Part shown: positions 1 through 53,149 of the stretch, piece after piece | Layout of the letters: each line of letters begins with the position of its first letter | Position numbering within the stretch: the first letter of the stretch is position 1 | Source of the DNA: Isurus oxyrinchus | Taxonomy: Eukaryota | DNA: 64,000 nt | Reading direction: 5' to 3' | NCBI GenBank assembly: GCA_026770705.1 | Contig: JANJGN010000034.1 | Span: forward strand, 4,464,001 to 4,528,000 | The notes under the pieces: generated by a model | What the model saw: only the letters and a program-made list of their open reading frames with translations | What the model was told of the DNA's origin: nothing | The model's database searches: none | Program-made: the position numbers and the translations under genes

Positions 1-494
1 AGGTCTATAGTTGTCGCTCATTCCAAATAGCTACTTGGAAGAGAACTGAAAACCTGGTGCAGTGTGTGAAAGAAAATCTAACCGCATTGCACCATATTAG
101 CGTTTTTTTTCGAGGCGACACACTCTGTTCGAACACAACGTAGGAATGGGATAAGAAAAGGCAAATTATTCTATCAAACTTTCAATAAGATCATGAATGA
201 GTTCTACTCAGCTACTTGTATCGCTTTAGTTAAGTCAGACTTAAAAACTGGCCATCCATAAAAGAATGATAACATCACTGTCACGACTTTAAATTACTGT
301 ACAGGGTTCAAGGTTCTGCGCGCTCTGTGACGGACTCTTCCATGGGCCACGTAGACCTACTGAGAAGACTTTCGTTTTTCTCCCTCATATCAACTCAAAA
401 CGCTTTCGACACAAGCAATTTAATGTTCATCATCCCGACTCGGCCATCAGTGGATTTGTTTTAAGCCTAAGTAAGTGATCAAGCTCTCTTTCAC

Positions 495-851
495 ATTTTT
501 TTGATTCATTCATGGGATGTTGGATTAGCTGGCTCAGCCAGCATTAACTTCCCTTGTTCAGGGGGTAGCTAAGAATAAACAAATTTGCTGTGAGCCTGGA
601 GTCAAATGTGGACCAAATCAGTTCAAACCAGGCAAGGCCAAATCATCAGTGACATTAGTGAATCAAGTGGATTTCCTCCCTGAAAATCGGCATTGGTTTT
701 GTGATTATCATCAGGCATGTAATTCCAGACTTTTTTTGAATTCACATTTCACCATCTGCCACAGTGAAATGCGAACCCACGTGTGCAGAGCATTACCCTG
801 AGTCTCTATAGGACTTGCTCAGTAAAAATACCATTCCATCGCCGCCTCCCT
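495..851 (-). mobile_element. tRNA-derived SINE, elasmobranch HE1-like
   Basis: Minus strand begins gggaggcggcgatggaatggtattt...ggttcgcatttc (tRNA-like A/B-box head). It ends in a tail (attcattcatgggatg...gctggctcagccagcatt on +) that resembles the LINE tails at ~8010, ~14190 and ~31190. Family name from recognition, not a search. Confidence 0.75.
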
Positions 852-1176
852 CAAATTTTAATCGGATCATTCATTTTCGTCCTGAATTCAAATGATTTAA
901 TTTATCATCTTGGAAACATTATCCCCACTGTACCATTTTAAACAAAGCTATCGTTGCAGTGAGTCTTCATTTCCTGTTTTTCAAGACGGCTATATCCTTA
1001 ATTAACAGTGGCGCCCTTCAGTGAAAATAAAATTCAAAACAGGGTTCAACAGTTAATATATCTAACTACAAAATTTATGTGAGAGAGCTCAACTAAACAC
1101 CATGTGCTTTACAAGTCCAAATCTTAATGACAATGTGTGTTGTTTTTTTTTTTCTATTTTGAATGCAATGATACAG

Positions 1177-1203
1177 AACGAAATGATGCTGCAAGAGAAG
1201 AGG
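1177..1203 (+). CDS. 27-nt phase-1 micro-exon, type D (ERNDAAREE), of coiled-coil repeat gene
   Basis: atacag|aacgaaatgatgctgcaagagaagagg|gtaatc. The intronic 'ggttcaac' motif ~130 nt upstream is shared with the D copies at 7221, 16289 and 20469. Confidence 0.7.
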
Positions 1204-3515
1204 GTAATCGGAGGAGCAATTTTATGTTTATAAGGGCAATATAAATTTATTTTGCTGTACTTTTTTCGGAAAGCTATGAACCAGAAATTCCTTCTAGTGG
1301 AGGCTAATTGGTAGAATGGTTTGTTGTTTTTGCAGCTTTGATTCAGAAGTAAGAGCAACCACTCCTGAGGCAGATGTCCTTCGTTAAAATTGATACCATC
1401 AACTTCGGTTTATAATCCAACATGATAATCCAGTGAAATGTATGATTCGTTTCTGTACCATCTGAAAGAATATTTCTTACAGAATGCCTCTCTTTTTCTT
1501 TCAATTAGAGCGGGAAAACTTTAAAATATAAATAATAATATGTCTTTTGACGCAATATACGACGTACATGTACATGGTTTCCTTCCATGCCTTAATATAA
1601 AACTGCCTGAGGAAAGTAGGCATTTTGGCGCAAATTGATGAATCCCAGTTGTGACTGAATAACACATTCATGAAAAAAGTTGAAAAGGTCTAAGAACAAA
1701 TAGCAATTCTCGGAAATTGGAATAAAACCGACTTCACTTCAAACTGAACCTTAGCATGACTTGGTAGTTCTCCGCGGTGGGATGAAAACAGAATGGTGGG
1801 CGGTGGAACGGCAATTTCCTTTCCCACTTCGCCTCCCCGATCCAACTGCATCCTATTCTAAAACAGGACATTTAAGTCCTAGAATGTGGTAGCAAACCAT
1901 TCGGAAGACCTAAGTGTCCATTGTTATTCCTGCCAACTCCAGTCAGTGCACCTGTGTGCAGAAAATCACCCTCAGAATCTGAGAGTTTGTGTGCAATTGT
2001 AAACTTTAGCATGCTTGAAAAGTAGCAATTTCAAATCATTGAGATCATTTGTAATGCACCCTTGCAATGTTTACACCTTCTCGTTCGTGCAAGTTTAATC
2101 ATTCTACGGAATTCCCAGCAGCAGCTTCAGTGTAAAATATTGAGTCGGTTGTTTATCACTGAATTATTGGCTTCTTGTTCGAAACGCATTGTCACCTGAA
2201 TCAATGTCAAATAACAATTATATGATTGAGAAATGAAAGTCAATCATATGCTCACTGATCTTAAGATGTTTGGACCGTTATATTTTTGTCGACATTTTTG
2301 TGCCAATTGCACTAATAATGCTATGTCTTGTGTATTGAAATTACAGATACATTTTGTGTTGACCAATATTTGATGAGAACGACTAACTTGACACTTTCAT
2401 GATCTTAGCATTTTCCGAGCCAGTGAAGAAAACGCATGAGCCCAGTGGCGCATTGCCACTTTAGAAAATGGTAGCATGTCACATAACCACTCAAGCACGC
2501 CTGGGGCAACAAACAGAGTTTTAAAAGGGAGATTCAGGACGACTTTAGAGCTGTTTCCTGCTTACTTTAAATTTTCAGAACGGTGGGAGGAGCTTAGGAG
2601 GGGGTCAAACTGAGAGTTTCACCCTACCCAGACCTGGAGATTTAAAAAGGAGAGACGCAAAAAAACATTTGCGGTCCCATCTCCAAACCTGACGAATCTC
2701 ATTGTCTCCTTCTACATGCGTACAAAAGTCTGCCTGTAAGACCCTGGAATCTTCATTATGACCGTCTTGTGCTCACCATCAACTCTTGTTGCCATCTCCA
2801 CAGGCTGAAACACAAACACTCACCAGGTTTTGGACTCCGAAACTTGGATTCTGGGGGCTGCATGCAATTCCCGTCTTTGTCACCCCCAATTTTCCGCTGC
2901 TGTCACTAAAGAGTTGCCTCCAACTGATTGGCCGGCAGCACTCTGAGGTGCGACTTCATCCCCAGTCATGATCACAAGTCAAAACCTCAATTAAAGAACA
3001 CATTTCAGACCTTTGTCTTTCGACGGCATGAGGTCACCACTGACTTCAGCAGGCGGGGCGCCAAATACACCCGCTGTAAAATAGTGTCTCGTGCGTTTCA
3101 ATTCGACCGAGGATTTCTAAGTAGATCACACTGCAACTGCCTCCAGCACAGGAACACGACAAAATGTTGGCTCTCCTTCAATTCTGGCAACTTTTTTTTT
3201 TCTCACCAGTTTCAATCAATTGATATCTGCCGACATATTAGGCACCTGCTTGGACACTGAATTTTGGAGACCCTTTGGTTAACTTTCCTTTTTTCTCTCT
3301 CCATACCTCCCATGCAATGCGACTAATTTAAATCCCCTTATTTGAGGGAACATTATCCACATGATCCAACGTCCCTACGAGGCAAGATGCCACATTAAGT
3401 TGGGATGGAGTCGGGTCGTAGGATTGACTTTCGTTTACTGTAAGGAGCCATATTTAGGCAAGTTATCAGTGTTTTTAATGGACGTGTTCCTTGATTTGTT
3501 TTCTCATAATTTCAG

Positions 3516-3551
3516 AGCTCAACATATGTAAAACATCATTGAAAGTTTTAG
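3516..3551 (+). CDS. 36-nt phase-1 micro-exon, type A (ELNICKTSLKVL)
   Basis: ttctcataatttcag|agctcaacatatgtaaaacatcattgaaagttttag|gtgaga. Canonical splice sites, no stop, paralogous to exons at 11151, 17966, 35214 and 48076. Confidence 0.85.
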
Positions 3552-3992
3552 GTGAGAATGTTGACTATTTTCTTTTGAAATTGTCGCATGCTTATAAGGC
3601 AAGATTTGACGTTGCATTGAGTCGCAACACAGAACGTATCATATTACCCGCCAGCTTTAAACTCGGCAGACCTATCAGTTCTTTTGATTTCAACGCATAT
3701 AAATATAAATTGCAGTGTAGAACTGGCAGACCATATGCGAGAGAGGACTCACGACGGATATTTCACAAAATGGGATCACTGAGGCCTGAATTGCTGGGTG
3801 TGGGGTCTTGGGGCGAGCGGGAAGAGCTCCGAATTTTGTGTTAATTGGCGTGGAGGAAGATGGCGTTGTAGTTGGGGGGGGGGGGGGAGGGGGCGCAAAA
3901 GCAAGCAAAATAATAATTGCTCCTTTGGATGGCGTTTTGCAGGGCTCAGCTTTGCTGTTGAATTTCATCTGCATTAATATGCTGCATTACAG

Positions 3993-4019
3993 AAAAAAAG
4001 CTGAAAGACAAAGATGACG
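3993..4019 (+). CDS. 27-nt phase-1 micro-exon, type B (EKKLKDKDD)
   Basis: ttacag|aaaaaaagctgaaagacaaagatgacg|gtatct. Lies 441 nt after exon A, similar to the spacing in the other cassettes. Confidence 0.8.
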
Positions 4020-6147
4020 GTATCTGGTTTTGAAATTCAAGTGCTACGGATTCAATATGTCAGGAGTTAGCATCAAAATCCTGGAAGGCCGAGGTCAAAC
4101 GAACCAGTGTGCTCAAGGCAATAATTTTAATAACGCTCCAATCAAACTGATGCAGAAAACAATATTACAAGGCAAATCTGCACACAAACAGAACGGCCCT
4201 CAGCTGATTATAACTATTTGTTGTTGATCGCACTGATGATGTTTATAAATTTACTCAAAAAAAAATAGACACAGACATCATATTTGCAAAATTTTTCATC
4301 TGATGCCCCCTGGGCCAGCAAAACCTTTTCTCATCCCTCTGGTGATTCCCAATTGATAACTTCTTGAGGCAAATGATTCTTCTGAAAAAAAAAGTCTTAT
4401 TCATCTTTAGCACCAACAACACATCACTGTGCTCCACTTTCTACTTGCGAAAGATGGGCCAGTTTCTTTGTGTCTGGAATGGAAAAAACAATTTCATGGA
4501 ATGAAACTCCTCACTTACTACATAATTGATTTCAATTTTTTGAATGTTTGTGGTTGAATGGAATGCACTGAAAGAATAAATTATCGCAGTAAAGAGGCAC
4601 AGATAATTATGTTTCTGAAACGTTATCAGGGCAAACATATACAATCTTCTGGACTACAGATGCGTAACAAAACACACGTTAATATCGGTGCACACAAGTT
4701 GTTGCAACACAATTACATGAAGAGGAATATTATTGAAATTATTTCAGATGCTTTATCTGGACTATCCTTCCACATTGCAGAATTGGAGCAAGCCGAGTAT
4801 ACCTCAAATTTTTCACCTTAGCACTGGACGATTAGGATTGTGATGGAATTCCATTTCAGGAAAATTAATATTGAGGAATCTCAGATTATCAGTTGATTAT
4901 ATGACGATGTTAATCTCACACTGTGTAACATAGCCCATGCAAGTAGTCTGCGAGCAACATTGATTGAGCTGTTGTGAAATTTAGGGAAAATTCAATAATT
5001 CTCACTGATCATTGCTGAAACAATAGAAACAGATAAGGGCCGGTTACCACTTAAAACAGCCATCATAAGTGCAAATCATATGTTCAGGTTAATGGAGCAG
5101 AGGGCGTGCGGTAGAGATAGATGACAGATCATCTTCGAAAGGCACCTTTACCAATGATAAATGTTAGCCATCCCTGCATCATGAACAGTGGAGAAGACAA
5201 CGCCTCATGATTAGGTCAGAAGGAATAATAGCAGGATTAGGCCATTCAAACCAGGGATCTGTTTCCGATCTTCAACAAAATACTGGATGATCTGTTTAAA
5301 AGCATGGCATCACTTTCCTTCACTTCCACGTTATTTTTTGAAAGCATGGCATATTAAAGAGTGGGTATGAAGAGGCTTTGAACTTATTAAATAACAGCAT
5401 CTTTGCGCTTTTTGCAGGATATTTCCATCGACCTCTGAACATCTGGGGGATGACATACATCCTAATATCAGCATTACTTGTGAAAATAATTATCCATCTT
5501 ACTTGATAAACATCTCCCATGACCTCAGTTGGGGGGTCGACCTCTTAGAATCGTATGAAATATAATAAAGTCGCATTGCTGGAAAGAATGTGGTTTGTTA
5601 GGGATGAAACCTTAGAAATTTGTATATTTAAGTAGAGTCAAGTAAACAGGAATAATTATTTCTTTCATCAATAATAGATCATGTACAATATCTATTCTGT
5701 GGGGTTCTTCTGTTGAACTATCCAATTCAATGAAATATAGTAGCAAAGAACATAAGATATTCCTAGCGCTGTATATAAATATTATATGCCCTGAATGAAA
5801 ATGAGTGGAAAACATCGATATATTGTTAAAGCACCGTGGTTCTATTCAGGAAGATGGCGGTTTCCAAACAGGGCTCTTCGCTTCCAGCATTGCAACACTG
5901 ACGATTCCTGTAACTTTACTATTAGAGTGGAAAGAGCTTCTGGAGTCTGCGGGGAGAGAACATTGACACAGAAATGAAAGTGTTGGTTGAATTCTTTTCC
6001 ACACTTTTCAGTAGTGCGACAGAAGTGTGGGAAGTGATCTTCTAAATTGAAAGAGAGACGTTTTCTATGTTAAATGTGGAAAGCGTGAAGTAATTATTGA
6101 GAACTGAATTGGGATGAAGGTGCTGATTTTGATACTCTGTGACGCAG

Positions 6148-6183
6148 AACTCAAGGCGTGCAAGCAAGCTTTGAATGATCTGG
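6148..6183 (+). CDS. 36-nt phase-1 micro-exon, type C (ELKACKQALNDL)
   Basis: gacgcag|aactcaaggcgtgcaagcaagctttgaatgatctgg|gtaagt. Consensus donor; paralogous to 15207, 43536 and 51232. Confidence 0.85.
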
Positions 6184-7220
6184 GTAAGTTAGAAATGTCC
6201 AAGGATTTATTTGGCATACTCAATTGTTCTATAAGTGGATTACAGCTAAAGACTTGTTTCAAAGGTCAGGTATATTCAGACAAGAGTTACAGCACAGTTT
6301 CCTTAACATTTTGTTGCATGTATAGCCTCGAACACCCTATATGTACTTAGCATTAAATTATGTGTTCGCATGAGCTATTTTTAATATTCCATGGGCTGTG
6401 CGCTTCCCTGGCAAGATCAACTTTATTTTCCTCCTCACCCCAAAGCTGTCTTGGGAAAAAAAAATGTAACCTGTCAAAGTGTATGATAAAAAGGGCAAAC
6501 ATAAGTCGCCTAAGTAACTGGTGTCCTCGTCTAACCACGTGAAATAAGCACATGTGGTAATATGCAAACAGCAGAAAATGTAACTCTTCCAACTTTCACT
6601 GAAATTGTGGATGAACAAGGCTCAACTACACCTAATGGCTTGGTTAAATCAAACTTATCAAGTCATGGAACAAAAGGATTGGCAAAAAAAAATCGCTGCC
6701 TCGGTTTTGAAATAGTCCACTCATGCCGGGGATTAACAGAAGCTGTGAAGAACTATTCATGTTCCCGATACAACTACTGAGATATATTGCATTTTCTATC
6801 CAGAGTAAGCACTAAACACGTTCTGTACAACTAATTTGACTGAGCTCTTTCAGTGTCGAACACGAGTGGAAATATTTTATCTCTACAAAAAATATTTATT
6901 TGTCTTGATCACGCGAATTGTAACATCAGTTAACGTTCTCAATTCAAACGTGCTCATACTTCGTTTTGCTGGCGTTATTCACGTTGCATAATGTGAAGCT
7001 AAGTTTACTGAATCTGCATTTCCTCACTTCCAAGACATTTAAATACTTGATCAGCTGCTTTGCTCATAACAGACTGGAGAACACTATTTGCGGTTCAACC
7101 TATGCTTTGCCTAGCAAAAGGCTTCATTTGCAATATGTCAAGTTAAGCAAAGTGACTTACCCGTCCTAGGTCTTAACAATAATGCCTGTCACTTAATGAA
7201 CTTATCATGCTATTATGCAG

Positions 7221-7247
7221 AAGGAAGCAAGGGAGACAAACGGAATG
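7221..7247 (+). CDS. 27-nt phase-1 micro-exon, type D (EGSKGDKRN)
   Basis: tattatgcag|aaggaagcaagggagacaaacggaatg|gtaagt. Lies 1037 nt after exon C. Confidence 0.75.
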
Positions 7248-8004: not shown

Positions 8005-10480
8005 TATCAACGCTGGGGTTGAAGGGTCGGTTGATTGGCTGACTTTTTTTTCCCATCCCTAATTGAATTTGCGAAGTTGGTGGTGAGCTAAATACTTCAA
8101 CAGTCCACGTGGTACAGGCAAGAACAGTGTTCTTAGGGAGGTAGCTCCGTGATTTCGAAAGAGCAAAGAATTAGAAGCGATATATTTCCCGGTCAGGATG
8201 GTGAGTGGCTTAGTGGGGAATTTCTTGCTGATGCTATTCCTATCTGTTTGCTGGCCATGTCTTTTGAGATGCTAGTGACTGTAGATTGGAAGGTGCTGTC
8301 CAAGGAGAATTGATACTACTCTGCACTGCATCTTCTCGGTGGCATATTCTGCTGTTACTTTGCACCTGTGGTGGACGGAGTGAATATTAGCAGATGATGT
8401 GCCAGTCAAGCGAATTGCTTTGTCCTGGGTGGCTTCAAGCTTTTTGAGTGTTGTTGGAGCAGCACTCATCAAGGCATGTGGAGAGTACATCATCAAACTT
8501 CTGACTTTTAGCATATAGAATGTGGACAGATTTTGGCTAGACATAATGTGACTTACACCGCAAGGGAGCCTAGCTTCTGACCAGCTGCTGTAGCCACATT
8601 ATTTATACGGTTAATGCAGTTCAGTATCTGGACAATGGTAAGACCCAGGTTGTTCACATTGGGCGTTAAGCAATGGCTAAGCCATTAAACGCCAAAGGGA
8701 TGTAATTAATTTCTATCTTGATGAACATAGTCATTTCCAGGCAATTGTGTGGTGCAAATGTTCATCGTTGTTCGTCAAACCAAGCTCGTATAGTGCGAAT
8801 GTTTGCTGCTTTCGGACCTGGACTGTTTCAGCATCTGAGGAGTCGCAAATGGTGCAGAGCATTGTACAATTATTAGTGCACTTCCCCAGTCCTGACTTTA
8901 TGATGGATAGAAAGTAATTCCTGTAGAAGCTGAAGATTGTTGGGCAGAGGACACAGCACTGAAACTCCTGCAGTAATATACTGGGATTCAGTCGAATGAC
9001 TTCCAAGAACCACAACCAACATCATTTTTGCCAGGCATCACTCCAAATAGTCGGGCATTCCGCCACGCCCTCCGCCCCATGCCCCGGGCGTCCCATCCCA
9101 CCAACAAACCCCTCCCCGCCCCGATTCCTGTTGCCAGCATCTTTTCTGGGACACCTTTAGGCACATTGTGTCAAATGCTGCCTTGATGCCTAGGGCAGTC
9201 ACTCTTACCTCACCGCTGCGGTTTAGCTATGTTATCCATGTTTTAAATAAAGACTGTAGAGATGTTAGGAGATGAGTGACACTGTTGCCACACAAAGTGT
9301 GCATCAGTGAGCATGTTTCTGCTTATCAAGGACCCTTGATAGCACTGCTGATGATATCTTCCATCATTTTACCGATTTTTAGAAGTATACAGATTGTGCA
9401 GTAATTGGCCAGCTTGCACTTCTATGGTTTTTCATGCAGTGAAAAGACCAAAGTGACTTTCCACATTCCGGCTTAATGCCTGCCTTGTAGCTGTAGTGGA
9501 GCAGCTAAGTTAGTGGCAAGCAAGTTCCAAATTACAAGTCTTCACTCCGATTGCCGGATTGTTATCAGTACCCATTGTCTTTACAGTTTTCATTGTCTAC
9601 AGCCGTTTCTTGACATCACTTGAAGTGAATTGATCTGGCTCATCGCTACCATTTCTGCTACTGTGGGCCTCTGGAGGAGGCCAAAATGGATCACGCATTC
9701 TGCACTTCAGGCTGAAGATTTTGCCGACTGTTTCAGCCTTATCGTGTACACTGATGTGATGGTTTCTACCATCATGGGGCATGGGGATATCTGTGGAGCC
9801 GCAACATACCGTGTGTTTATGTCACTGTCGACCAGCATTCACAACCTAATATGGCAAGTTTGCTGAGCATTGATGTGATTGGTTGTTTGTGGAATCACTT
9901 AGCTCTTCCATTAACATGCTGCTCATGCAATTTGGTATGCAAGCAGTCCTGAGTTCTCGCTTTACCAAGTTGATACTTTTCTATTTTTTTTTTTGCCTTT
10001 TGATGCTCTTGTTATGCCGCGCTAGATTTCTCATTGAACCCAATTGGAACAATCACATTTTGGTAATGGTACTGTGGAATGACTGCCAGACTATGACGCA
10101 ACAGCTTACGATTATCTAAAATTCTGCTACTGCTGGTGGCCAACAGCTCCTTGTTCATTCACTAATCAACAGCAACTGAGCCAGCCTAGCAGCCAAACCT
10201 GTTCCAGCTCTCAGTCAGATCAGTAGGCGCTGGTGCGGCTGAGCCACTCTTGGTGGTGGATATTTTTGCACAACGCCACCCTGCCCCAAACAAGCACCAC
10301 AACTACCCAGAGTATATTCTAAACACCACTGCCCTCAGGGCTTCATCCAAATGGTGTTAAAGATGTTGGAATGATGATTAATCAACTGAAGACGGGGTGA
10401 GGTTGTGGTATCTAATAATCAGCCGGTGTTTACTTGCTCAACGTGTCATTAAGGATTTCTTAAGGGCTTTTAACTGTCTA
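8005..10480 (-). mobile_element. Decayed HER1-like LINE (RT region and 3' tail)
   Basis: Tail cccatccctaattgaa...ggtggtgagc at ~8050. Minus-strand ORF fragments KKLEATQDKAIRLTGT...IHSVHHRC and QCCVLCPTIFSFYRN resemble RT motifs (PQGSVLGPTIF). Many frameshifts. Confidence 0.75.
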
Positions 10481-11150
10481 GCTTCAATTTGCAGGATGCC
10501 GGGAAGAGTTTAGTGGTGGGAGGAAATCAAAAGCCTGTCCCTCCACAGGCCCGGTGGGTTAAAAGGCTGAAAATGTCTAATATTCTGCACCTCATTACCA
10601 CAATCGACATTGGATATGCCAAGCATCCTGAATGCCCTCACCAACCGCAACACCTCCCACAAACTGTAATCCACTATATGTGAATGTTCAGCCACTCAGA
10701 TACTGGACAGTCCTCTGTCCACCATTCATCCAGCTGCCAACCTCTGTGGTCTGAGTCGCACGAACTTACCTCATCCTGAGTTCTGAAACTTTACTTCTGG
10801 GGACTGTTTTCATTCCAATCATTGCCACCGCAGTTTTGCCATGGTTGTGACTGCAGATTTGCCACCAAAGTGAATGGTCCTGTGTTGACTGAGGCAGGAT
10901 TTCATACCGATAAAGGGTAGAAAGTTAAATCCCCAACAAATGATGCCCCTTGGAGACTGGAATGGCTCGAGGCAGCAAACATCAGCGAACCAGTTTGCCC
11001 GTGGATCATCACAATTCTTTTGTTCAAGTACTTTAGTTTCATTGAATGCAGTTTTCTGAAACATGTCTTCTGTTTAAGGCACCATGTATAGGCAACTTAA
11101 TATCTTTTGAAATGGCACTGATTAACGTTTTCTTACCTCCTTCATAGTAG

Positions 11151-11192
11151 CTTTCGAGCTCAACATATGTAAAGAAGCATTGAATAATTTAG
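11151..11192 (+). CDS. Type A micro-exon with shifted acceptor, 42 nt (AFELNICKEALNNL)
   Basis: The homologous acceptor tttcag|ag reads tttcgag here. An in-frame AG lies 6 nt upstream (catagtag|ctttcgagctcaacatatgt...ttag|gtgagg). Confidence 0.6.
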
Positions 11193-11645
11193 GTGAGGAA
11201 ATTGAGTTTTCCTTTGGAAGCTCTCCACAAATACAGAGTAAGACTGTTAGAAGTTATGGAAGCGCAGCGACAGCGATATCATATTGTGCATCAGTTACAA
11301 AATTCTCCCGATTTTCCATTCAACGAACTCGGATCTCTTTAAATATAAAGCAGTACATGGAAATGGCATACCGTACAACACATTCCTGCCTGCACCTTTG
11401 CCCTGGAATGTGTGCGTGTGCTTGTGGGTGTCTGCATTGGGTTGAGTAGTGGGGCACGGAATGTTTAATGTATTCATCTTTTATGTCGAAAATGTTCACA
11501 TCCCTATGACCTATATTGCAGGATACAAATGCTCAACATAATACAGCTGGTCTGTAGGATAGCATTTTTGGCGTTGAAGTTCGCTGTTGAATTTTATGGA
11601 AAATATTTTCATTGCAGAATAATACTTTACTTTTTTTATTTTCAG

Positions 11646-11672
11646 AAACAAAACTGAAAGCAAAAGATGACG
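11646..11672 (+). CDS. 27-nt phase-1 micro-exon, type B (ETKLKAKDD)
   Basis: ttttttattttcag|aaacaaaactgaaagcaaaagatgacg|gtactg; strong polypyrimidine tract. Confidence 0.85.
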
Positions 11673-15206: not shown

Positions 15207-15242
15207 AACTCAAAGCATGCAAGAAATCTTCAAAAGATCGAG
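15207..15242 (+). CDS. 36-nt phase-1 micro-exon, type C (ELKACKKSSKDR)
   Basis: catgcag|aactcaaagcatgcaagaaatcttcaaaagatcgag|gtaagt. Confidence 0.85.
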
Positions 15243-16288: not shown

Positions 16289-16315
16289 ATGGAAATAATG
16301 AAGCAAAAGAGCAGG
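16289..16315 (+). CDS. 27-nt phase-1 micro-exon, type D (DGNNEAKEQ)
   Basis: catacag|atggaaataatgaagcaaaagagcagg|gtaaat. Lies 1046 nt after exon C. Confidence 0.7.
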
Positions 16316-32132: not shown

Positions 32133-32136
32133 CTCT

Positions 32137-32168
<32 letters not shown>

Positions 32169-40600: not shown

Positions 40601-41200
40601 TTGATCACCCAGTTAGTGAGCTAATACTTCACTCCTTAAGTGCTTTGTTGAGACTGGAGTACTATCTCAATTATTTATGGAAAATAAAAATATTTTGGAA
40701 GCAGCTCATAAAATGTACAACCTGGAATGGGCGGATGATAACCTGGAATGGGCGGGTTGTGCTGTGAGAATTTTTAGACAGACTAAGCTTGTAGCCGCTG
40801 AAGTTAAGGACCCTAACACATGACTTTGTTGAAACATATAAGACCCTGAATGGATTTGACAGAGTGAATGGAGAAAGGACAGGTCTTCTTTTGTGTGAAC
40901 CGAGAAATGGGGGCCACAGAGGACTATGAGGATCGTGGATATTTTCTATAACTTAGCAGATTGTTGAGACATTGGAATTTCATTCCTCAATTGATATCTA
41001 AAACAAACAATTTGAAAACCTTTAAGACAGCAGAAAATATATTCTTAATAAACAAGGAGGCGAAATGTCATCGAACAATGCTAGAAATTTAAAGTGGACG
41101 TTGACATTTGATCAGGCTTGTTTTTTATTGAATGGCACAGCAGGCTCCAGGGGCTGAGTGGGCTCGTCCTGCAAATGTTTCATATGCGTGTATGTTCGTA
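37700..41200 (+). mobile_element. Old, heavily decayed CR1 LINE (ORF2 and 3' tail)
   Basis: gccacagggatcaacactgggg (PQGS.LG motif) at ~39835. The 3' end attgaatggcacagcaggctccaggggctgagtgggctcgtcctgc is CR1-like. The 5' boundary is uncertain. Confidence 0.6.
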
Positions 41201-41339
41201 TATGCAACAACAAAACAGCGGACTTAGTACTGAACCTACCAGACACCCCACTAGAAACAGCATTCCAGTCACAAAATCATTCAGCAACAATATGGCGATG
41301 TTTCTTGAGACATTTTTGCACTCAACTTGTGAGGTTCCT

Positions 41340-42900
41340 CTGCATTACATGAAATTATACTTGGTCACCAGGCTGCCATTCAAATGCTTTGTTAGTATAT
41401 AAGTGAACTACATGAACTGCAATACATTCATCAATCGTCATGGTTACTTCCTCAAAAATGAAACAAAAACTCAATCAGGCCCGACCTTGATGACACGCCT
41501 TGAGTAGCCCTTGCCTTTCAAAGTGATTATTTAACCTGTTCATTGGTATTCATTCCAATAGTTTACCCACTACTGCATTCGGAATGACAGGCCTAGAACA
41601 ATTTGGAATATCCTATGCTGCCTTGTTAAGCAAAGGTGCAACATTAGCAGACGTCCAATCCTGAAACTAATCTGTCGCCAGTCCAAATAGGAAAACTATG
41701 TTCAGAGCTTCCGTTATTTCCTCCCTTGCTTATTTTTAAAACATGGGATATATTTGTTATGTTATTAGTGATGTATACGCTTTCAATAATGCCAATCTCC
41801 TTAATACTTCCATTCCCACTCTGCCTATGACGTCTAAAACCTGACAGATGTCCTCCTTAAATATCATAACTACATGATGCCCCTCTATAGTTAAGGAAGA
41901 CGCAAATTATTAATTAAAATCATACCCACATCCCCTGCATCCTCATATTAGTACCCACTTTTGTCTTATACGTGCTGTACTCTTTTATCCATTGCCCCCT
42001 TAGTCCTAAGTTTTTAATGAAAAATCTTTCTTTCTGCTTCATTTTGCTGTCAATATTCTTGCATGCCCTGTCCTTCCTTCCCTCATATCCTGTCCCACTT
42101 TATATACCTCACTGTTTTCTGCAGTATTCATTGCTCTATGTTTGGCTTGAGTTTTCATTTTCTGCCTATGCTTACCCTGTAAACACTATGATATCCAGGG
42201 GGCATTAGATTTCGCCGTGTCACATTTTTTTTTCTTTGTGGATAAATGTTTACTCTGAACGTTCTGAACCCGCATTTGAATGTCTCCATATGCTCAGACA
42301 TTGATGTACCTTCAATAAACTCTTTCCTGTCTACTTTAGCTAAATTGCACCTCAAATTAGCATTGCCCTAATTTAGGACGTTAACTTCTGTTTTCATTTC
42401 CCGTTTCCATCATGAATTTAGGATTAACGGAATTATGACCAGAACAAGCAAAATGCTCTCCAATTACTTATCGTCCCATTTTACGTGCCTGATTTCTTAA
42501 AATCAGTCCACAATCTGTTATTGGACTTCTTACAATCTAGTCGAAGATTTTCAGCTGAATACAACTTACTAATTCTGTTTACTCCATTTCTTATGAATTC
42601 AAACAGTTCCACTCTAGATTCAGGCAATTCAAGCAATGTGATATTATTGCCCTACATTTTATTTGCACTTATCAGAGATTTGTTTGCATATTTGCTCTTG
42701 TACATATCTATGACTGCTTCGGTAATCAAACATGCTTCCAGACGTGATTTAGTATTATTTTGTTCCAAAGCTGAATCACATTGGTTTCATATCATGATCC
42801 AGATAACATATCAACCGGCCTAACTTATCTACCAAACATTGCCGAGTGCCCCTTTTCGTAACCCTGTAGGAGGCCTGTAGAGCGTCATCCATGAAGGAAC
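41340..42900 (-). mobile_element. Decayed CR1 ORF2 fragments
   Basis: tcaaatgctttgttagtatataagtgaactacat...cttcctcaaaaa reads on the minus strand like the CR1 RT segment FFEEVT...DVVY.DF.KAFD. Confidence 0.55.
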
Positions 42901-43535
42901 TGTCCGGTTTTGTTTCAACCAATGGCAATTTTCCAAGGTACATATATGATCGTGTAAAAAATGTCATGGCAGCAATTGTCTTGTATAATTAAGTCTGGTT
43001 CAAACAGCATTACGATCAAAACTACACATTATAAAAGATAAAGTGATATTTTTTAAGATATTATTTGCAAAGGCGTTTCTTAAAATCTAATCACTCTTTT
43101 GAAGGAACACATCCCATGGAAGTATATGGGAAACAAGAACGGGCGACTGTCTTGCGTCATATGATAGCATGTTTTTCATCCGATGCAAAATCAGAAGACG
43201 TAAAACATGTGGTGGTCTCGGATTTAAATAGCCTTCTGGGTCTTTTCTTCTCCGCAAATAGACAGGTTCCTTTTGAACATTGAAATTCTGACAACATTCC
43301 AACTCTACTATTTGGCTGCACTGCGCATGTAGACGTCCTGTAGCAGTTACAGAAATGTATGTTCTCTCTGTCTCTCTATCTCTTTCTCTCTCTCTCACTC
43401 TCATGGCACTGCTTGGCACTGGAACGCAATACACTTCAAACGAACGTGGAGAAGGAGAGCGAGGGAGAGAGACGATAAGATTGCAATTTCCAGTTCGAAT
43501 GAAAGAGATGATATTCCTAATTTACTGTTCTGCAG

Positions 43536-43571
43536 AACTCAAGGCATGCAAAACATCTTTAACATATAAAA
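43536..43571 (+). CDS. 36-nt phase-1 micro-exon, type C ((E/K)LKACKTSLTYK)
   Basis: actgttctgcag|aactcaaggcatgcaaaacatctttaacatataaaa|gtaggt. Confidence 0.75.
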
Positions 43572-44199
43572 GTAGGTCATAACTATTCCAAAAATATAGC
43601 AAAAACATTCTCTACATAGATTTATATTAACACAGGTTTTAACACCACGTGTGTAAGAACAAACCCTAAAATCATTTTTTTTTCTGCTGTGCCTGTCCAG
43701 AGTTATAGGTCTGCCTCCAGATTCATCCTTGTCATTCAGTTCCATGGAGGGAATTATTTTTATTATTATTATTAAATAACCTTCTATGATATCTATAATA
43801 ACAATAATAATAATAGCTACACTAATGAAGCTACCACTATTATTATTAATAATAAAAACAAATCTTATTTGTTTGTACACCGACACCATCCTTATGGCGT
43901 CATTTGATGCTTCTTCTACAATAGCATTCATCTTCATGACTGTAATTGCTCCTCTGACCAAAGTGGTCACGCCCCTCCATTTTTGCATCCATCTATATCT
44001 TGCCTGATAAGGCTGCGTCCAGGAAAGTTGAGATGGATTTCCAGTGGCTCTTAAATAATTGTCCTGTAAGAGAAGTATCAATATCCCCCCATTTATGCCT
44101 TTGCACATACCGTGCCAGTGAGATTTACTATGTACCTTGCTTTGAGATGTACAGCCTTGAGCACGGCCAAACGATGTTGCCATTACTTTTATTGCAAAT

Positions 44200-45200
44200 A
44201 CTTCGTTCTTTCTGAATTCCAGAATAACTGACTATTTTTTTTCTGTTTTCCAATGCAATTTCTGATATTTTCCCAATTTGTGTCAACACTCGGGTTCCCC
44301 TTCCGCTAACAAGTTGGTTTCAATACTGTCAAAAGGATGTGCAAAAAATGCAGAAAAATATTGGTCTCAGCCTTATTACAGCACAAAAGCTTTTGACATA
44401 TAAATGTCTCAGCTTCCTTGGAACTGGTCCCGCTGACACGGGAATCAGAAACTCTCGCTCCTGCATTGCCACATCAGCCATGAACTCATTGGCTCTAAGC
44501 TGTTATTTCTGTCCTCACTGGCACTTGGCACACAGGGGTAACCGGAGACTATTACTAAAAATGTCCTGCATGTACATATTGTATTCATGGCCATGGAGAG
44601 TAGTTCTTCAGGACCCGTTTCCACTTTTTATCCAAAGTGTTGATAGCAATTTGAACCCCTACCCCTGGCTGCTCATCCTCCATCTTAGTAATGCCCTACA
44701 AGCTCACTTTGACATCGTTAAAACTGGCAGCAGGTAGGCAATTGACATTCTGCAGTCAAGTCAACTGCAGCAAAATCCCTCTCACTATCCATGTTCTACT
44801 CGGCGTTCTTTCTGCTCATGCATTTGAGCCACGGAGCTACGGAGAACACACTGTTGCTGCACATTTTTGAATAACAATAGTCCACATCAGCGTCCAAAAT
44901 GGAATAACGGTTCATGAGCATGACGGACTAGAAGGACCATGCAGAATCCTGCTAGATTTCCTGGTGTGCATTCATTCCCCTTCTGCCTTTAGGTTTCTCA
45001 CCTGTGGCAACGGCACCTCCGTAAGCGTGCTATCAAATCATCCAAAGGCTTACAGTTGCGCCACAGCGACCATACACACTGCTCGAGTTCCGTAACCTGG
45101 AGCTCAATCTTCTGCAGCAGGTGATACTTTCTGCAGCCTGTCCGTCAAAACCATTTAAAACCTTCACGTTTTGTGCATACCACAAGTCAGGCCTCTGATA
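44200..45200 (-). mobile_element. Decayed CR1 ORF1 region
   Basis: gctcgagttccgtaacctggagctcaatcttctgcagcaggtgatactttctgca reads on the minus strand CRKYHLLQKIELQVTELEQ, like the ORF1 N-terminus at 55324-55470. Confidence 0.55.
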
Positions 45201-45599
45201 CATTAAACTTAATTTTGTGCAAGTTGATGATAGAATGTAGATCTCGGACCTTCTCTCATGAATCAGGTCCTTTTTTCCTCTCTGGTAGGTAATTCAGGAT
45301 TGTTTAACATAATTTATCACTTGTATATTTGGATATTTATTTCGGTGTTGATTTTCACTCACCTCAAATAATTCAGCAAATAATGCAGACTGAAAAAAGT
45401 CGAAAAATATGTGAGCGATTCACTACCTGTTCACCAATCCCCTCCATCAAAAATGACAAACTTCACTGAGTATCCTTGTACGCCATCACTGAAATCAAGT
45501 GCAGGTGCAGCAAACAGTTTACAAGGCAACACGAATGTTAAAACACATTGTGAGAGGACTTGAGTACTGGAACAGTGATGGCTTAATGCAGCTCCGCAG

Positions 45600-46330
45600 G
45601 GTCTTGTGTAGGCCACAACTTGAGTATTACGTGCAGCTGACGTCTTATTAGCTAAGAAAGGATATACCTGCTATAGAAGAAGTGCAGCGGAGGTCCACCA
45701 GTCTGATACCTGGGATGATAGGAATGTCTTATGAGGAGAGAGTGAGCTGACTAGGCATGTATTTACTGATTCCTAATGGAACGACAGGAGATCCGACTGA
45801 AACATGTATAATTCTTAGAGGGGTGCGCAGACTGCGTTTGATTTGGAGGAGAACTCCCAGGTGGTGGTGTTCCCCATCTTTCTTTTTTTTCCTTGGCCCT
45901 CTAGATAGTAATGGTCGTAAGGTAGGAAGGTGCTGCAGAAGATTCTTGGTGAATTCCTGCAGTGCATCTTGACATGGTAGCAGGAAGTGAATTTTTTTGG
46001 ATCTGGTGGCAATCCAGTGGGCTGCTTTGTCCTTGTTCGCGCCAAACTACATGACTGTTGTAGCAGCTACACTCATCCAGGCAAGTGGCTGTATCCCATT
46101 ATACTCCTAACCTGTGCGTCGTAGATGGTGGACAGGTTATGGGCGCACACAAGGTGAGTTACTAGTGGCTGTTATCCTAGTCTCTGACCTGTTCTTCTAG
46201 CCATGCTATTTGTATCGGCAGTAAGGTTCAATTTCTGTTTAATGTTAACCCCAGAATGTTGATATTGGGGGATTACGTGATGGCAATGTCATTGAACGTG
46301 AAGGGGCAATGATTTCACTGTTAGATCGTG
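45600..46330. mobile_element. Adjacent short CR1 3' fragment (+, ~45600-45840) and HER1-like fragment (-, ~45845-46330)
   Basis: atagaagaagtgcagcggaggtccaccagtctgatacctgggatg...tatgaggagaga encodes IEEVQRRSTSLIPGM..SYEER. The following sequence is colinear with 8215-8700. Confidence 0.65.
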
Positions 46331-46900
46331 AAAGATCTGTACTCTGCTCTTCCAGCCCGCATTGATGACCTCACTATCTAATATTGACTGACAGGGAATG
46401 ATGGTCTACATTTTAAAATGTTGCATTGAATCCGAACCTCAACACTGCATTTCGGTGAGCAGCACAATTTCACTTTACACCTGGAGAGACACAGTTTTCT
46501 CGACAGCAGCCCTCCGTGCCAAATGCATGACACGTTTTCTCATTTTTTTCCGCGGCTTTGGTCATCAGTAGAAATGATTAATGTCTATCCATCCTACCGA
46601 ATATTTCATTCTTCTTGAACTGGATAAGTACCAACATACTTTTCTCAAGTGAAATCAAACATATTTTTTAAAATATTATTCATAATGTAATTATTAGCGC
46701 CTCAAAATAATTGTGGTGCATCTGCAGTGGGTTCCCTCGAAAGCAAGACAACCCTTAATCAGCTGCTTTGCCGATGGCGGAGAGCATGGATTTTGCAAAG
46801 GTATTTTTCATGTACAAAATAACTGAACGAAACTGAAAACGCATACGATGCTGTGCACTGTTTGCTCTGCGTATTAATTGTTTATCATGCACTTTAACAG

Positions 46901-46927
46901 AAGAAAAAATGAAAAATAAAGAGCAGG
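46901..46927 (+). CDS. 27-nt phase-1 micro-exon, type D ((E/K)EKMKNKEQ)
   Basis: cactttaacag|aagaaaaaatgaaaaataaagagcagg|gtaatt. Confidence 0.8.
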
Positions 46928-48075: not shown

Positions 48076-48111
48076 AGTTCTCAGCGTGCAAAGAAGCTTT
48101 GAAAACTTTAG
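48076..48111 (+). CDS. 36-nt phase-1 micro-exon, type A (EFSACKEALKTL)
   Basis: ttttaatcctcccag|agttctcagcgtgcaaagaagctttgaaaactttag|gtgagg. Confidence 0.85.
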
Positions 48112-48377
48112 GTGAGGAAAATTAAATCTTTATGAAAAGTCTCATGCCATTATAGGGCAAAAGTTTCACATGTGGCACAAAAGCAGCAATTTGATATTGC
48201 TTTGGCAGGTGGTAGTACAACAATAACACTTTTTCTTAGTTTCATTCATTCCTACGGATGCAAATAGAAATGAAATAATGAAAAGTTGCTCCGTACAATA
48301 TCATATATTTAGCACAATTGCTGGAGTGATATTTCTAGGGCCACAAAATTTTTGGGTTGATGTTAAATTGTGAGTCA

Positions 48378-48430
48378 TTATTATTACTGTTCTTAATAAT
48401 AATATAAGAACAATAGTATTAATAATATTG

Positions 48431-48466
<36 letters not shown>
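48378..48466. repeat. (AAT)n microsatellite
   Basis: ataataataataataataataataataataat. Confidence 0.9.
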
Positions 48467-48617
48467 CTCATCTGGATCCAGTGAAGTTCTATTGAGTTTA
48501 ACAGTTACCGCAAATTTGGCCCATATTAGCTAAGGGGCTGAAATAATCAGGAGTTACATTTCTGTTGGCTGTCATCTTTCCTCTTGAATCACAAAGGCAA
48601 TAAATTTTGCATTACAG

Positions 48618-48644
48618 AAAATGAGCTGAAAGCAAAGGAAAAAG
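48618..48644 (+). CDS. 27-nt phase-1 micro-exon, type B (ENELKAKEK)
   Basis: ttttgcattacag|aaaatgagctgaaagcaaaggaaaaag|gtacta. Confidence 0.85.
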
Positions 48645-49085
48645 GTACTAATTTTTGACATTCAACAATTGAATACAAAAGATGCTGATCGTCCTCTGGG
48701 GAATAAAAGCACGATGCCGTAATTCAAACTGTCCTGCTGCTCAGCTTACTTACTTTTCTTTAATAATATAATGCTACATATGCGATTTAGTGCAACAATA
48801 CATATTTTCGGGCAGGGATGGGGGAGTGCGCTGTTGATCTAGCTCCACTACTCCACAAGCCCTTCTTTTAGTCCAAACGTTTAACTGACTCAAAAATGGC
48901 GAAAACTGGTTGCTCCACTGCTGGAACACACAAAAAATAAGTTTTAATCAGGCGGATTTTGAATAAGCAGCAAACATATTGTTTATTATCAAAATAGCCT
49001 TGTCAAATGCAAAGGCAATGCTTATCAGCATCCAGTGTGGAACATGAAAGTAAAGTAATTATTCATTCCTGGTATCGTAACTCCC

Positions 49086-49106
49086 CCTCTCTCTCTTCCT
49101 CGCGCG

Positions 49107-49137
<31 letters not shown>

Positions 49138-49160
49138 ATACACACATGCTCGCACACACT
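49086..49160. repeat. (CT)n/(CA)n microsatellite
   Basis: ctctctctct...gcacacacacacacacacacacacaaacacacatacacac. Confidence 0.9.
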
Positions 49161-51231
49161 CATTAAGCAAGAGAAATCAAACAGGCATCGATGAAATCGC
49201 CCAAAGATTAAAAGTCATTGGTAGGAAGGCAAAGGATAGATGGTGGAGCTGTTTAAATGACGTCCGGGTTTTCCGCTTGGTTGACATTGCTAATCCATGA
49301 AAAAGTCAATGAGTCTGGTGCTGCTTTCCAGGCGAACTCATAGAAAACTCGAGGGTACTCCATTCCAGCATGTTAAGTACCTCAGGAGCAGCGTAAATTC
49401 GCTTCCGATTTGGACTGCTTCTTGGGTGCTGGAGACTGCTATATTCCTTCGGGAGCAGTTTGGCGTTCCCTTCTCAAAGCAATGCCAAAAGCAACATCTA
49501 AAAGTCAGTCTTCCAGTTATGTTTTTCTCCCTTTTCCTTCAAGCCACAAAACGTGCAGTGCAAGCCGGTCAAGACGTTGATTTTTTTTTTCAGCTGCTTA
49601 ATTACTCTATCTTTGGCGCGTTTTTTTTTCATGCGTAACAATCAGAGATCAGCATTGACAATTTAAATAAGCTTTGAGAGCCCTAAGCCGTTGAAGACGA
49701 ATTAATTTTTATTAAAGTGTCCATGGCACATATAAAATGTAAATGTATTCTCCAGTGATATGACATTCAGCTGGTGATTGTGACTTTGTCGGTGATAGTA
49801 GTGATATATAGATGTTGGTAATTATTAAAACTGAGCTATTTCCGTTCTAAGGTATGTGATTTTGGATCATATTTTTCAAGTATGCCGGTTAACATCTTTA
49901 CTCATTTATGTACTTCAAAGAGAAGCAAAATGTTCATCTTGCAAAAGGCAAAGATCTCCATTTCCCTGCAGAGTAAATGAAAAATTGTTGCTTCATAACA
50001 CTTTTAACAGGCCACACAGGTGTCTTTCCATTTGTCATCAACAGAAATGGGGAATCGTGAAAATAATTACCCATTTAAAAAGTTTTAATTCGATTAATAT
50101 CCATCATTGAATTGTGTGACGTATGGGAAAGGACCACACTAACATAAAGAAGCCTTGAATTTACTTAGTGTTATAGAATAATTTGAAAGCAAAATGACTT
50201 TCTGTGGTGACTTATTAAACTATATTCCAAGTCAGGCAACACTGATGTGCATGAGAGCCATGTACATTTATTTGCGTTCACATGACTGCGTACAAATGAA
50301 GGGATCTTCCTACAAGAACTCGGCAAAGTCAAAAAAGCCACCAATGACTCTGGATAGCTCACAATGAATAGGCCAAAGTTTGGAAATTCTCCATGGGTAG
50401 GAGATTCGAAATGAGGTGTGCAATGCTGACCGCAGTTTATAAGGTGGTGATAACTCAACTTAACAATTTTTATGTTCATAAGAGATCAGTTTCCTCGAAG
50501 CCCTGAGACAAACGCTTTTTATTTCCTAAAGTTCAGATACAAGTTAACATTCCTGTCAGCTCCCAATCGTTTCCACAGATAAGAGGGATGTCAAAGGCCC
50601 TGGGTCGACATGGACAATTTGAAGGTTCATGTTTAGAAACCACTATAGGATCAGCTGAATTACTGACATTATTAAATTGAAGAAGCTGCAGTGGTCGAAA
50701 CAGTTCATCACTGAGGGAACTTTTGCTTTCGTCTCCAGCAGTGACAGATGTCAAAGGTATATATCTGCTGTGAAGTTAACAAAGAGAAATTAAGACATTG
50801 CGAAAAACAATTCAGATATCTGCTGATGGAACAACAACGGTTCATGTAATGGAACAGGCCCCATTGCATATCGGGGAATTATACTGGAGACGCTCTCTCA
50901 ACCAACCTCGGTTAAAGTCATAACTGTGCAGCTCAATTAGTTATTCATTATCAACTCATTTTCGGTGCAGAATGTGCGAACTTGTTTTCCAGCATTGAAT
51001 CACGGATAGATTCTCAAACATAGTTATTTTGTTGCAAAGAAAACAACAATGCTTTTGGACATTTGTGTTTGGAGAAAGCCCGTATGGATGTGGAACATAC
51101 ACTCTTATGTAATGCTGCCCATTTGGCGTAAAAGAAAAGATACGTTTTTACAAAATGTGCAATGGGTGAAGTGAGAAGGTCATTTCCTATTCCTAGGGAA
51201 TATATGCAATGTTTCATTACAGCTAATGCAG

Positions 51232-51267
51232 AACTTAAAGCATGCAAAGAATCTTTCAAGGACCTGT
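51232..51267 (+). CDS. Type C micro-exon (ELKACKESFKDL) with damaged donor; pseudo-exon or terminal exon
   Basis: aatgcag|aacttaaagcatgcaaagaatctttcaaggacctgt|gcaaga. The GT donor is replaced by GC and the last exon base G by T. Confidence 0.5.
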
Positions 51268-52153
51268 GCAAGAATAGTTTACTGCCTGAGCAAAACTCTA
51301 AAAAGTTTATTCCCTCAATATGATTAGCGTAAAATACCATGCCAGAAATAGTATGCAAGGAAAAAGGAAAAAGGCAACATAACGTTTTCCTGCCGTTGGC
51401 GGCAGAAATAGCGTGAGATATTTATTATATGCTTTGGAATTTACTTCCCTGGATTAGCCTAAACTAATTTAAACCCTCATTGTTGAAGTCGAATTTATGA
51501 AAATATGGGGATGAGGCAACTTAGCTCCAGTGTATTTCATGTAGATTGTGGATGATCCTAACTGAGTTCCTCCAATCCGGCAGGGTAACTACCATTTTAA
51601 TAAATTTGAACAGCAACATAACGTACACGGTTTCGGAAAGCTTCATTGACGCACAACCTCAGCGGTGCATGTCGGTCAGTGTTAAACATCCCCTCGCACC
51701 TCGTTCGCAATGATTTAGTTGTATCATGACCTGACACTTTATGTACAATTTTAATTTGCCTCCTTTGTTTTTTTTTACTTTAATTTCTCCATTGGTGGAA
51801 ATGTTAACTCTATATCTAACCGGTCAAATAACTCAATTGCCTCGAATATGTCAATTTGATAAACATTTGAATTTCCACTTGCAAGTCAATTCAAACATCT
51901 TCTGGAAAATGGTACTCATAATGTAATTTTCAAAGTTTCCATCTATATGTGTTGAACCTCACTGTGATCGTTAAGGCCACTATTTCATTGGTCAGGTGAC
52001 GTGCCCAGAAGCAGAAGCAACAATGCAATCATGCCTCAGCTTTATTTTAATGCATACTTGTGGTATGTAAAAAAAAAATCAATAATCTCAAAAGGCAGTG
52101 CCACTTCTATTATATTATCTCTGTACTCTAATTGTTTTAATCCATTTCAACAG

Positions 52154-52180
52154 AAGGAAAAATAAAAACAATTGAAAATG
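52154..52180 (+). CDS. 27-nt type D micro-exon (EGKIKTIEN), weak donor
   Basis: catttcaacag|aaggaaaaataaaaacaattgaaaatg|gtcatc. Lies 886 nt after exon C. Confidence 0.55.
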
Positions 52181-53149
52181 GTCATCAATTATGAAATTAG
52201 TACTTCAAAACGCCAATGGACGTCATATTGTTTCACATTCTTTGTGCGATTTAGCTGCAGTTTTGGGGGGATTAGAGAATATGAGTTGGATAATGGATTG
52301 GAAATTGTCGCCCCCTTGATTCGCTCATTGTTGAGCTGACATTTCAAACAACCTTCGAGGTTTAAGGCCAAGTAGCACTGAAGTTGCCTTGTACATTCTG
52401 TGAATGGACATAACAATACGATCATGCACTCTGACTTCTGGGTCTGCCGTAGGTATGCGTCCGAGAATAAAGTAATTGCTGTAATTCAGATTTACATACC
52501 ATCACCCTCCCAATGAGTGATGGAGGGTGGGGTGTCCTTTCTCCTGGAGAAATTGTACCCTGCATTCTTCTACTTTCCATCCAAGTCACAGACCTGTTGA
52601 ACGGTTCCCCACATTTTATGACTCACGCCGGTAGGGATGGGGCGATAACAGACCGCTCTCTGAGGCCTAGTCCTAATTCACAGCAAGGAAATTACAAGCA
52701 ACTTAAAGGCCGCCCTGCCACGGCAAGTTTTTACTGACCTTGTATTTGACCATAACCGTGCATCTACTATATATAATAAAGGATTGCGCATTTTCCAGGC
52801 TGGGCAACTCAGTTAATTTCAAATTTAGCTCATCTTTGTCAAGCATTTCATTCTCCATAGGTGGCAACATTTCTTAAAATAAGCAAGTCACCTTTCTTCT
52901 GGCATGAGGAGTTTTCTATTTATTGTACATTTCCATGCATAGATTTCTGCTCAATTTTAGCAGCGGACAGTCGAGCTAGAAGGGAAAAAGCTTTGTCTAG
53001 ATTCAGTGAGGATGCCCTTGTTCCCATGCTCTGTGTAGCGTATGAGCGACATGAGTAAAACATGCCAAGAACTAGACAAAGGAGGGCCAACAGTTCACAA
53101 AACAGCTTTTGCAGCAGCCGCAATTTGAAGTAATAAAAACACTGCCATA

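Follow-up and report, generated by a model that had tools for sequence, protein, structure and literature searches.

A tandem array of four-exon cassettes in Isurus oxyrinchus with a predicted coiled-coil product

In the stalk of CD23/FCER2, 21-residue heptad repeats are encoded by phase-1 exons of 63 nucleotides (nt), one exon to each repeat, and three to four such repeats are followed by a lectin domain. Exon-block amplification is a mechanism already known from nebulin, NBPF and BG, and we describe here a clear new example of it: an array of micro-exons in a 64,000-nt stretch of Isurus oxyrinchus DNA (GenBank assembly GCA_026770705.1, contig JANJGN010000034.1, positions 4,464,001 to 4,528,000 of the forward strand), which we call the window and whose GC content is ~40%. 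The micro-exons alternate between 36 nt (classes A and C) and 27 nt (classes B and D; the exception is B5, with 24 nt), are in phase 1 throughout, and recur as a four-exon unit, ABCD. Whereas CD23 places each repeat in one exon, the repeat is here split 36+27 by an intron; CD23-type lectin and transmembrane exons were not seen in the window, outside which both could lie.

The unit can be set beside several other described systems. The nebulin super-repeat is, as here, a four-exon block with several paralogous sub-repeats that was duplicated many times in one gene, but it comprises seven domains with exon borders inside them (PMC1553488), whereas the present block has 126 coding nt and two three-heptad repeats; no sequence link between nebulin and the array was found. 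The HLS triplet of NBPF/DUF1220 (Olduvai) places a two-exon unit inside a larger one of six exons and 4.7 kb, 90% of it intron, that was likewise amplified intragenically with its introns, yet NBPF triplets are insertion-free and 96–100% identical within a clade (PMC3429928), in contrast to the old cassettes, many insertions and dead copies found here. The tail of chicken BG proteins (butyrophilin family) is a coiled coil encoded by a variable number of phase-1 heptad micro-exons, with a conserved Cys and intron read-through stops (PMC5938342, PMC4046983). Phase-1 heptad micro-exons are found at our locus too, and its modelled product resembles the BG tail in the predicted coiled coil, the conserved Cys and a putative read-through stop, but BG exons are single-heptad exons of 21 nt (18–24; PMC5938342) and ours are 36+27-nt pairs in a four-exon unit. 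Because neither the 21-nt exon nor the one-exon-per-repeat layout is found, we file the array under neither BG nor CD23. In teleost piccolo b, too, a symmetric exon was amplified inside its gene in a particular fish lineage, although the unit there is a single phase-0 exon coding for a zinc-finger domain (PMC3484663). The present array has the marks of a higher-order exon block, namely a tandem multi-exon unit in one orientation, intron homology that follows class by class, and paralogous sub-repeats.

We scanned the window with a position weight matrix (PWM) of exon plus splice sites, built from 14 seed exons; in shuffled sequence the maximum score had a 95th percentile of 12.8 under the 36-nt model and of 15.8 under the 27-nt one. 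The scan recovered the remaining array on the + strand only, the non-seed hits being C5 (29.7), C6 (25.3), Bx (24.9) and D6 (19.2). The resulting order is D0, A1 B1 C1 D1, A2 B2 C2 D2, A3 B3 C3 D3, B4, E, F, D4, A5 B5 C5 D5, A6 B6 C6 D6, where B3, C3, D3 and B4 have damaged splice sites (Table 1). The array is best described as seven old head-to-tail cassettes, two of them incomplete, and we regard its architecture as almost certain. A preliminary description of the window had counted at least five copies; the tandem four-exon copies stand, but their number becomes seven once we add an incomplete cassette at the left end of the window and a fourth, cryptic one.

Class-specific, collinear intron homology supports the earlier proposal that the cassettes were amplified together with their introns. 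All ten intron lengths quoted for the A-B (441, 453, 412, 376 and 506 nt) and C-D (1037, 1046, 1010, 3329 and 886 nt) classes were reproduced exactly on re-measurement. When introns alone were compared by blastn, same-strand matches stayed within class (D-A with D-A, A-B with A-B, B-C with B-C and C-D with C-D); strong cross-class matches were pieces, in both orientations, of one element that we take to be related to long interspersed elements (LINE-like), which is inserted in the D1-A2 intron and recurs elsewhere, and these pieces account for part of the intron expansion. In 350-nt flanks, with LINE-like pieces and microsatellites masked and splice signals trimmed, a z of at least 5 was reached upstream by 15 of 51 same-class pairs versus 0 of 180 different-class pairs, and downstream by 11 of 51 versus 1 of 180. 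Positions 1–1176 match the C2-D2 intron (blastn E = 7e-22, in agreement with the alignment), as anticipated by the suggestion that positions 1–1100 are a C-D intron and that the array continues to the left. A profile trained on cassettes 0–3 only found C-D intron remnants at 32294–32557 (E = 5e-16, intron only), 33599–33944, 46314–46976 and 51501–52225, and no match further right in the window. Plain whole-intron identity is clearly above shuffles in cassettes 1–3 only (0.54–0.57 versus 0.41–0.44 shuffled); it lies within ~0.07 of shuffles, or lower, in 8 of 10 A-B pairs and in all three C-D pairs with cassette 6, and older intron copies are detectable by profile search only.

The 12-nt element GCTGTTGRATTT, which had been noted before B in four introns, occurs four times against 0.03 expected, each time directly 5' of a B exon, and 11 of its 12 columns are identical across the four introns compared with 75 of 343 columns (22%) of these introns. 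GGTTCAAC lies on the + strand at 1043, 7092, 16158 and 20345, that is, 124–134 nt 5' of D0–D3; counted simply as an 8-mer it occurs 5 times versus 2.2 expected, which is not significant, and only its position is. CAACTTTCA alone is not enriched (29 found versus 33 expected, one mismatch allowed), and the block around it aligns across cassettes 0–3. The C-D motifs of the preliminary description thus hold as aligned blocks at fixed positions in cassettes 0–3, but not as enriched words. Inside the B1-C1 intron, positions 5222–5285 give a weak B-flank profile match (E 0.008–0.018), perhaps a small local duplication.

What had been taken for a separate piece, a damaged B followed by E, F, G and D, is the decayed fourth cassette, because B-C and C-D intron homology is found within it. 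The B-C homology spans 21400–22300, with a profile match at 21858–22285 (E = 5e-11), and 21402–22091 matches the B5 region too; the C-D homology (32294–32557 and 33599–33944) is collinear across an assembly gap of 207 N at 32803–33009, which is bordered on both sides by tetranucleotide repeats. By this comparison cassette 4 has evidently lost A, had its B inactivated, and grown to ~12 kb. We assigned the coordinates of E, F and G by inference, no positions having been listed earlier. The splice-site score of E (18.1) is the top of 1868 untrained candidates, the best of 1765 minus-strand controls reaching 16.9, and E has TGC at -13, as B and D exons do; class-level DNA homology was not found for it (exon z 1.3–1.5). 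Exon F resembles the A/C exons in its sequence (exon z 3.0 and 3.2; 0 and 1 of 150 nulls), has a splice score within background (11.6), and is possibly the displaced C of cassette 4. Another candidate for that position, X (22412–22447), was rejected; it lies in the middle of the B-C intron and scores within background. The proposal that G is an exon found no support, its score of 8.5 falling inside background. At 32230–32304 a CTT microsatellite gives a pyrimidine tract and an in-frame, Ser/Pro-rich 75-nt stretch with a good donor at its end, and it is possible that G is a young hinge exon.

The order of duplication can be approached through the introns. An unrooted intron-only tree (945 columns) separates cassettes {0,1,2,3} from {4,5,6} with support of 95.8/97 (bootstrap 97%), and Jukes-Cantor distances are 0.63–0.71 within cassettes 0–3 and 0.83–1.0 within 4–6. 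On these distances cassettes 0–3 are the younger group, internally star-like, and none is recent. Their quartets are star-like (33, 35 and 37 of 1065 columns) and therefore give no sign of recent homogenisation or of an eight-exon doubling (0,1 to 2,3), which found no support. Intron identity across all cassette pairs is 0.39–0.60, and near-identical recent copies, as in an NBPF-like ongoing hyperamplification, are absent. An attempt at dating that used 7e-10 per generation, the rate of the epaulette shark (PMC10587355), yielded impossible ages, hence we claim no date. The paralogy of A and C was confirmed: intact copies share 56–69% nucleotide identity, equal lengths and equal phases, with a ratio of nonsynonymous to synonymous substitution rates (dN/dS) of 0.31. 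In the flanks, however, neither A versus C nor B versus D reached a z of 5 in any of 60 pairs on either side, and A-B and C-D introns have nothing in common; the suggested doubling from two to four exons is thus backed by the exons and not by the introns, and it may be read from exons alone.

The coding logic of the unit, absent from the preliminary description, explains it: 36+27 nt make 63 nt, 21 residues, and three heptads. The modelled frame from D0 to B6 (19 exons) encodes 199 aa with no stop, versus 20 and 16 stops in the two other frames of a 21-exon model. Positions a and d are hydrophobic in 44 of 60 cases versus 8 of 150 at the other positions (Fisher p = 1e-23, repeats not being independent), and the model protein is without Pro. 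Cys occupies one d position in 9 of 10 36-nt exons, while Glu occupies the first g position in all 10. The 29 g-e' pairs divide into 13 attractive, 1 repulsive and 15 neutral. A heptad core with attractive g-e' pairs marks a coiled coil whose helices run parallel and in register, and the spliced product is predicted to be a parallel coiled-coil rod of 21-residue repeats.

Both AG and GT are kept in 17 of 25 exon slots, where neutral decay would leave ~0.3 per slot (p = 1e-4), and dN/dS among intact exons, from few codons, comes to 0.19 for C and 0.48 for B. Length, phase and core residues look constrained beyond the sequence as a whole. The dead or missing slots include an uninterrupted run of six, B3, C3, D3, A4, B4 and C4 (p = 0.003, post hoc), which shortens to five (p = 0.008, post hoc) if F is C4; in the model, A3 can join either D4 or E-F-D4, and the 36/27 alternation is kept in both. 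At the 3' end, joining C6, which has a GC donor, to D6 leads to a stop, and reading through C6 leads to one after 18 more codons. Because the 12 kb after D6 hold no convincing exon (best score 13.7 versus 15.2 in the minus-strand control), C6 or a point close to it is the likely end of the coding frame, and the functional domains likely lie to the left of the window. At A2 (region 11148–11156) the native AG is gone and two in-frame AGs stand 6 and 9 nt upstream, possibly a compensating acceptor shift.

We consider it quite likely that the locus is a live coiled-coil gene, and fairly probable that the array forms the repeat region of a single protein-coding gene, its 36/27-nt exons being such as would give a parallel coiled-coil rod acting as a dimerising spacer. 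The first unit would have been a 36+27-nt pair that doubled to ABCD, and ABCD with its introns would have been copied by unequal crossing-over that broke within introns; copies 0–3, on the 5' side, would have arisen after 4–6 and in a burst. Because every exon is in phase 1 and each pair equals exactly three heptads, gain or loss of whole pairs would keep frame and helical register. The rod may later have been shortened through splice-site decay of the contiguous six-slot block, after which A3 would be joined in register to E-F-D4 or D4. Leu at a and d, Glu(g)-Lys(e') pairs, and a Cys at one d per repeat would favour an in-register parallel dimer, which would be disulfide-laddered if the rod is extracellular.

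Several observations weigh against this reading. Splice junctions throughout are modelled, and the sites of A2, B5 and C6 are weak or displaced; the heptad register would be disturbed locally at A2, if an AG upstream of it is used, and at B5 with its 24 nt. Amino-acid constraint is uneven, with dN/dS of 1.11 in intact A, 1.47 in D and 0.83 overall, again from few codons. The 5', younger part of the coil is likely more interrupted because D0, D1 and D2 are without a hydrophobic a residue, and C2 carries Ser/Arg at core positions. The oligomer state and cellular location given above are read from the residue pattern. The intron tree is both unrooted and near saturation, and the term younger for cassettes 0–3 reflects their shorter distances. 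Finally, protein and Pfam searches returned no relative, domain or gene name.

The searches themselves were as follows. An exon-frame profile run against 1.84 billion protein representatives found no relative, its two matches both coming from an intron-derived tail and being unrelated on inspection; two further profile searches found none among 263 and 912 candidates. Simulated homologues at 80% identity were detected in 16 and 56 of 100 cases by the first two profiles, and the third design detected 96 of 100 at 80% identity and 60 of 100 at 70%. A retroelement frame of the window, searched as a control, gave 0 of 45; vertebrate proteins are perhaps poorly served, and because of this failed control and the low detection in simulations, the protein-search blanks are weak. 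Pfam gave no match at E ≤ 0.01 in 108 of 187 frames of at least 70 codons, a sub-threshold IFT80 match being taken as chance, and Rfam gave none. In the ESM Atlas the C6 read-through peptide reached 0.77 at best and provided no lead. Among the sequencing runs listed, four DNA runs from a single sample contain 86–96% of the words of positions 3300–7400 and are perhaps the source of the assembly, and none of the listed runs was RNA; 16 rows from a second organism, at 0.06, are not counted as evidence. No described shark gene of such a build was found by title or abstract opening, a coverage that leaves out subscription journals and supplements.

Other explanations of the array have evidence on both sides. 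It is unlikely that the array is an alternative-splicing menu, its 27-nt exons being SRRM3/4-type regulated microexons that yield rods of tissue-dependent length or with register breaks. UGC lies between branch point and AG in 74–79% of SRRM3/4-dependent microexons (10.1101/2024.09.17.613571), and here TGC stands exactly at -13 before 7 of the 14 exons in the 27-nt class, before none of the 12 in the 36-nt class, and at 1.8% of 1812 background YAG sites, and within -20 to -5 in 9 of 14 versus 1 of 12 (background 24%). The trinucleotide is common to B, D and E though their introns are otherwise unalignable; all exon lengths are multiples of 3, and B, D and E fit the microexon size of ≤27 nt. 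Nevertheless, B and D are paralogous and may have inherited TGC, B2, D2 and D6 are intact without it, and skipping a single 27-nt exon would break the heptad register. We also think it unlikely that the array serves as a disulfide-linked stalk outside the cell, in a receptor that is either secreted or a type II membrane protein, is similar to CD23/C-type lectins or to tetherin, and has its head domain past the right edge. A Cys at a d position suits interchain disulfides, the 21-residue, 63-nt, phase-1 units resemble the CD23 stalk, and D6 keeps AG and a weak GT, but such a head is opposed by the Pfam result, by 12 kb after D6 without a strong exon, and by the stop that follows C6 inclusion; the model also has no N-glycosylation sequon, a weak point since about one is expected by chance. 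Rather unlikely is a butyrophilin/BG-like type I membrane protein with the array as its cytoplasmic heptad tail and no terminal globular domain. BG tails have many phase-1 heptad exons (13 to 36), stop in their last exon or the one before it, and carry a conserved Cys (PMC5938342, PMC4046983), which a frame likely stopping at C6, with no convincing exon after D6, would suit; against this stand the difference in exon length (21 nt, 18–24, versus 36+27), the lack of any Ig or transmembrane exon in the window, and a sequence link that was sought and not found. Of a terminal B30.2 exon, which butyrophilins have, the 108 of 187 long frames covered by the Pfam search gave no sign.

The damaged or lost slots (8 of 25), together with a dN/dS that for A and D is about 1 or higher, could suggest a decaying pseudogene whose open frame is a remnant. 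This is very unlikely: with 17 of 25 slots retaining both splice dinucleotides, 19 modelled exons without stop or frameshift, and introns near saturation, it fits only with very recent death. An interspersed-repeat or assembly artefact is extremely improbable. LINE-like pieces do recur in four introns and cassette 4 contains the 207-N gap, but the shared blocks are on the same strand, occur once per cassette at a fixed distance from the matching exon, are collinear over ~1 kb, survive masking, and are absent past 52.3 kb; moreover, homology is collinear across the gap, and the identity of the copies, ~45–58%, is far too low for false duplication. As an extension of the preferred coiled-coil reading, we put forward as a speculative and rather doubtful proposal that this is an undescribed, lineage-restricted cartilaginous-fish gene for a Cys-laddered coiled-coil ruler. 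Its length would be set by hierarchical duplication (two to four exons to at least seven blocks) and by in-register shortening through splice-site death of six consecutive exons, not deletion, with tissue-specific SRRM3/4-type inclusion of 27-nt exons. If so, the presence of dead copies next to live ones would amount to a natural experiment on the upkeep of micro-exon splicing. The array offers a legible record of coiled-coil length change, in that its introns let one read which unit was duplicated, in what relative order events fell, and how the array later contracted in register. Since paralogous micro-exons, some live and some dead, lie together here, the cis-elements that keep 27-nt exons spliced could be tested directly, although the biological payoff is limited.

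Table 1. Coordinates of the cassettes, exons and associated elements in the window.
Feature	Position	Strand	Description
Cassette 0 (partial)	1..1203	+	3' part of C-D intron (1-1176) with ~350-nt insert; D0 1177-1203, 27 nt, intact
Cassette 1	3516..7247	+	A1 3516-3551, B1 3993-4019, C1 6148-6183, D1 7221-7247; AG/GT on every exon
Cassette 2	11148..16315	+	A2 11157-11192, B2 11646-11672, C2 15207-15242, D2 16289-16315
Cassette 3	17966..20495	+	A3 17966-18001, intact; B3 18414-18440, donor deleted; C3 19423-19458, donor AT; D3 20469-20495, without both sites
Cassette 4 (decayed)	21400..33845	+	B4 21521-21547, without both sites; D4 33819-33845, intact; A not found
Exon E	24174..24200	+	27 nt, phase 1, open
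Exon F	29165..29200	+	36 nt, phase 1, open; diverged A/C type
Candidate G	32230..32304	+	75-nt open Ser/Pro-rich stretch inside CTT microsatellite; exon status unsupported
Cassette 5	35214..46927	+	A5 35214-35249, B5 35626-35649 (24 nt, in frame, weak sites), C5 43536-43571, D5 46901-46927
Cassette 6	48076..52180	+	A6 48076-48111, B6 48618-48644, C6 51232-51267 (GC donor), D6 52154-52180 (AG kept, weak GT donor)
12-nt element 5' of B exons	3954..3965	+	Further copies at 11583, 18372 and 35590
LINE-like insertion in D1-A2 intron	8100..8870	-	Related pieces 13380-14230, 30380-31250, 45960-46320

A second interspersed element is present in the array introns as two copies of opposite orientation (9600–10143 and 25600–26299). 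The decayed retroelements of the window resemble those of cartilaginous fish. To the right of the array, CR1-like LINE remnants lie at 54003–54600 and 61600–64000, and a weak RVT_1 match at 63189–63443 (E = 0.11) is the only tool support for a retroelement. Where a LINE-like element starts, 54662–54744 and 54971–55058 form a short direct repeat of 76% identity. Two decayed, reverse-transcriptase-like retroelement copies, presumably Penelope/GIY-YIG-like, are inverted relative to each other at 56620–58050 and 59481–60884 and are 67–69% identical over ~1.3 kb.

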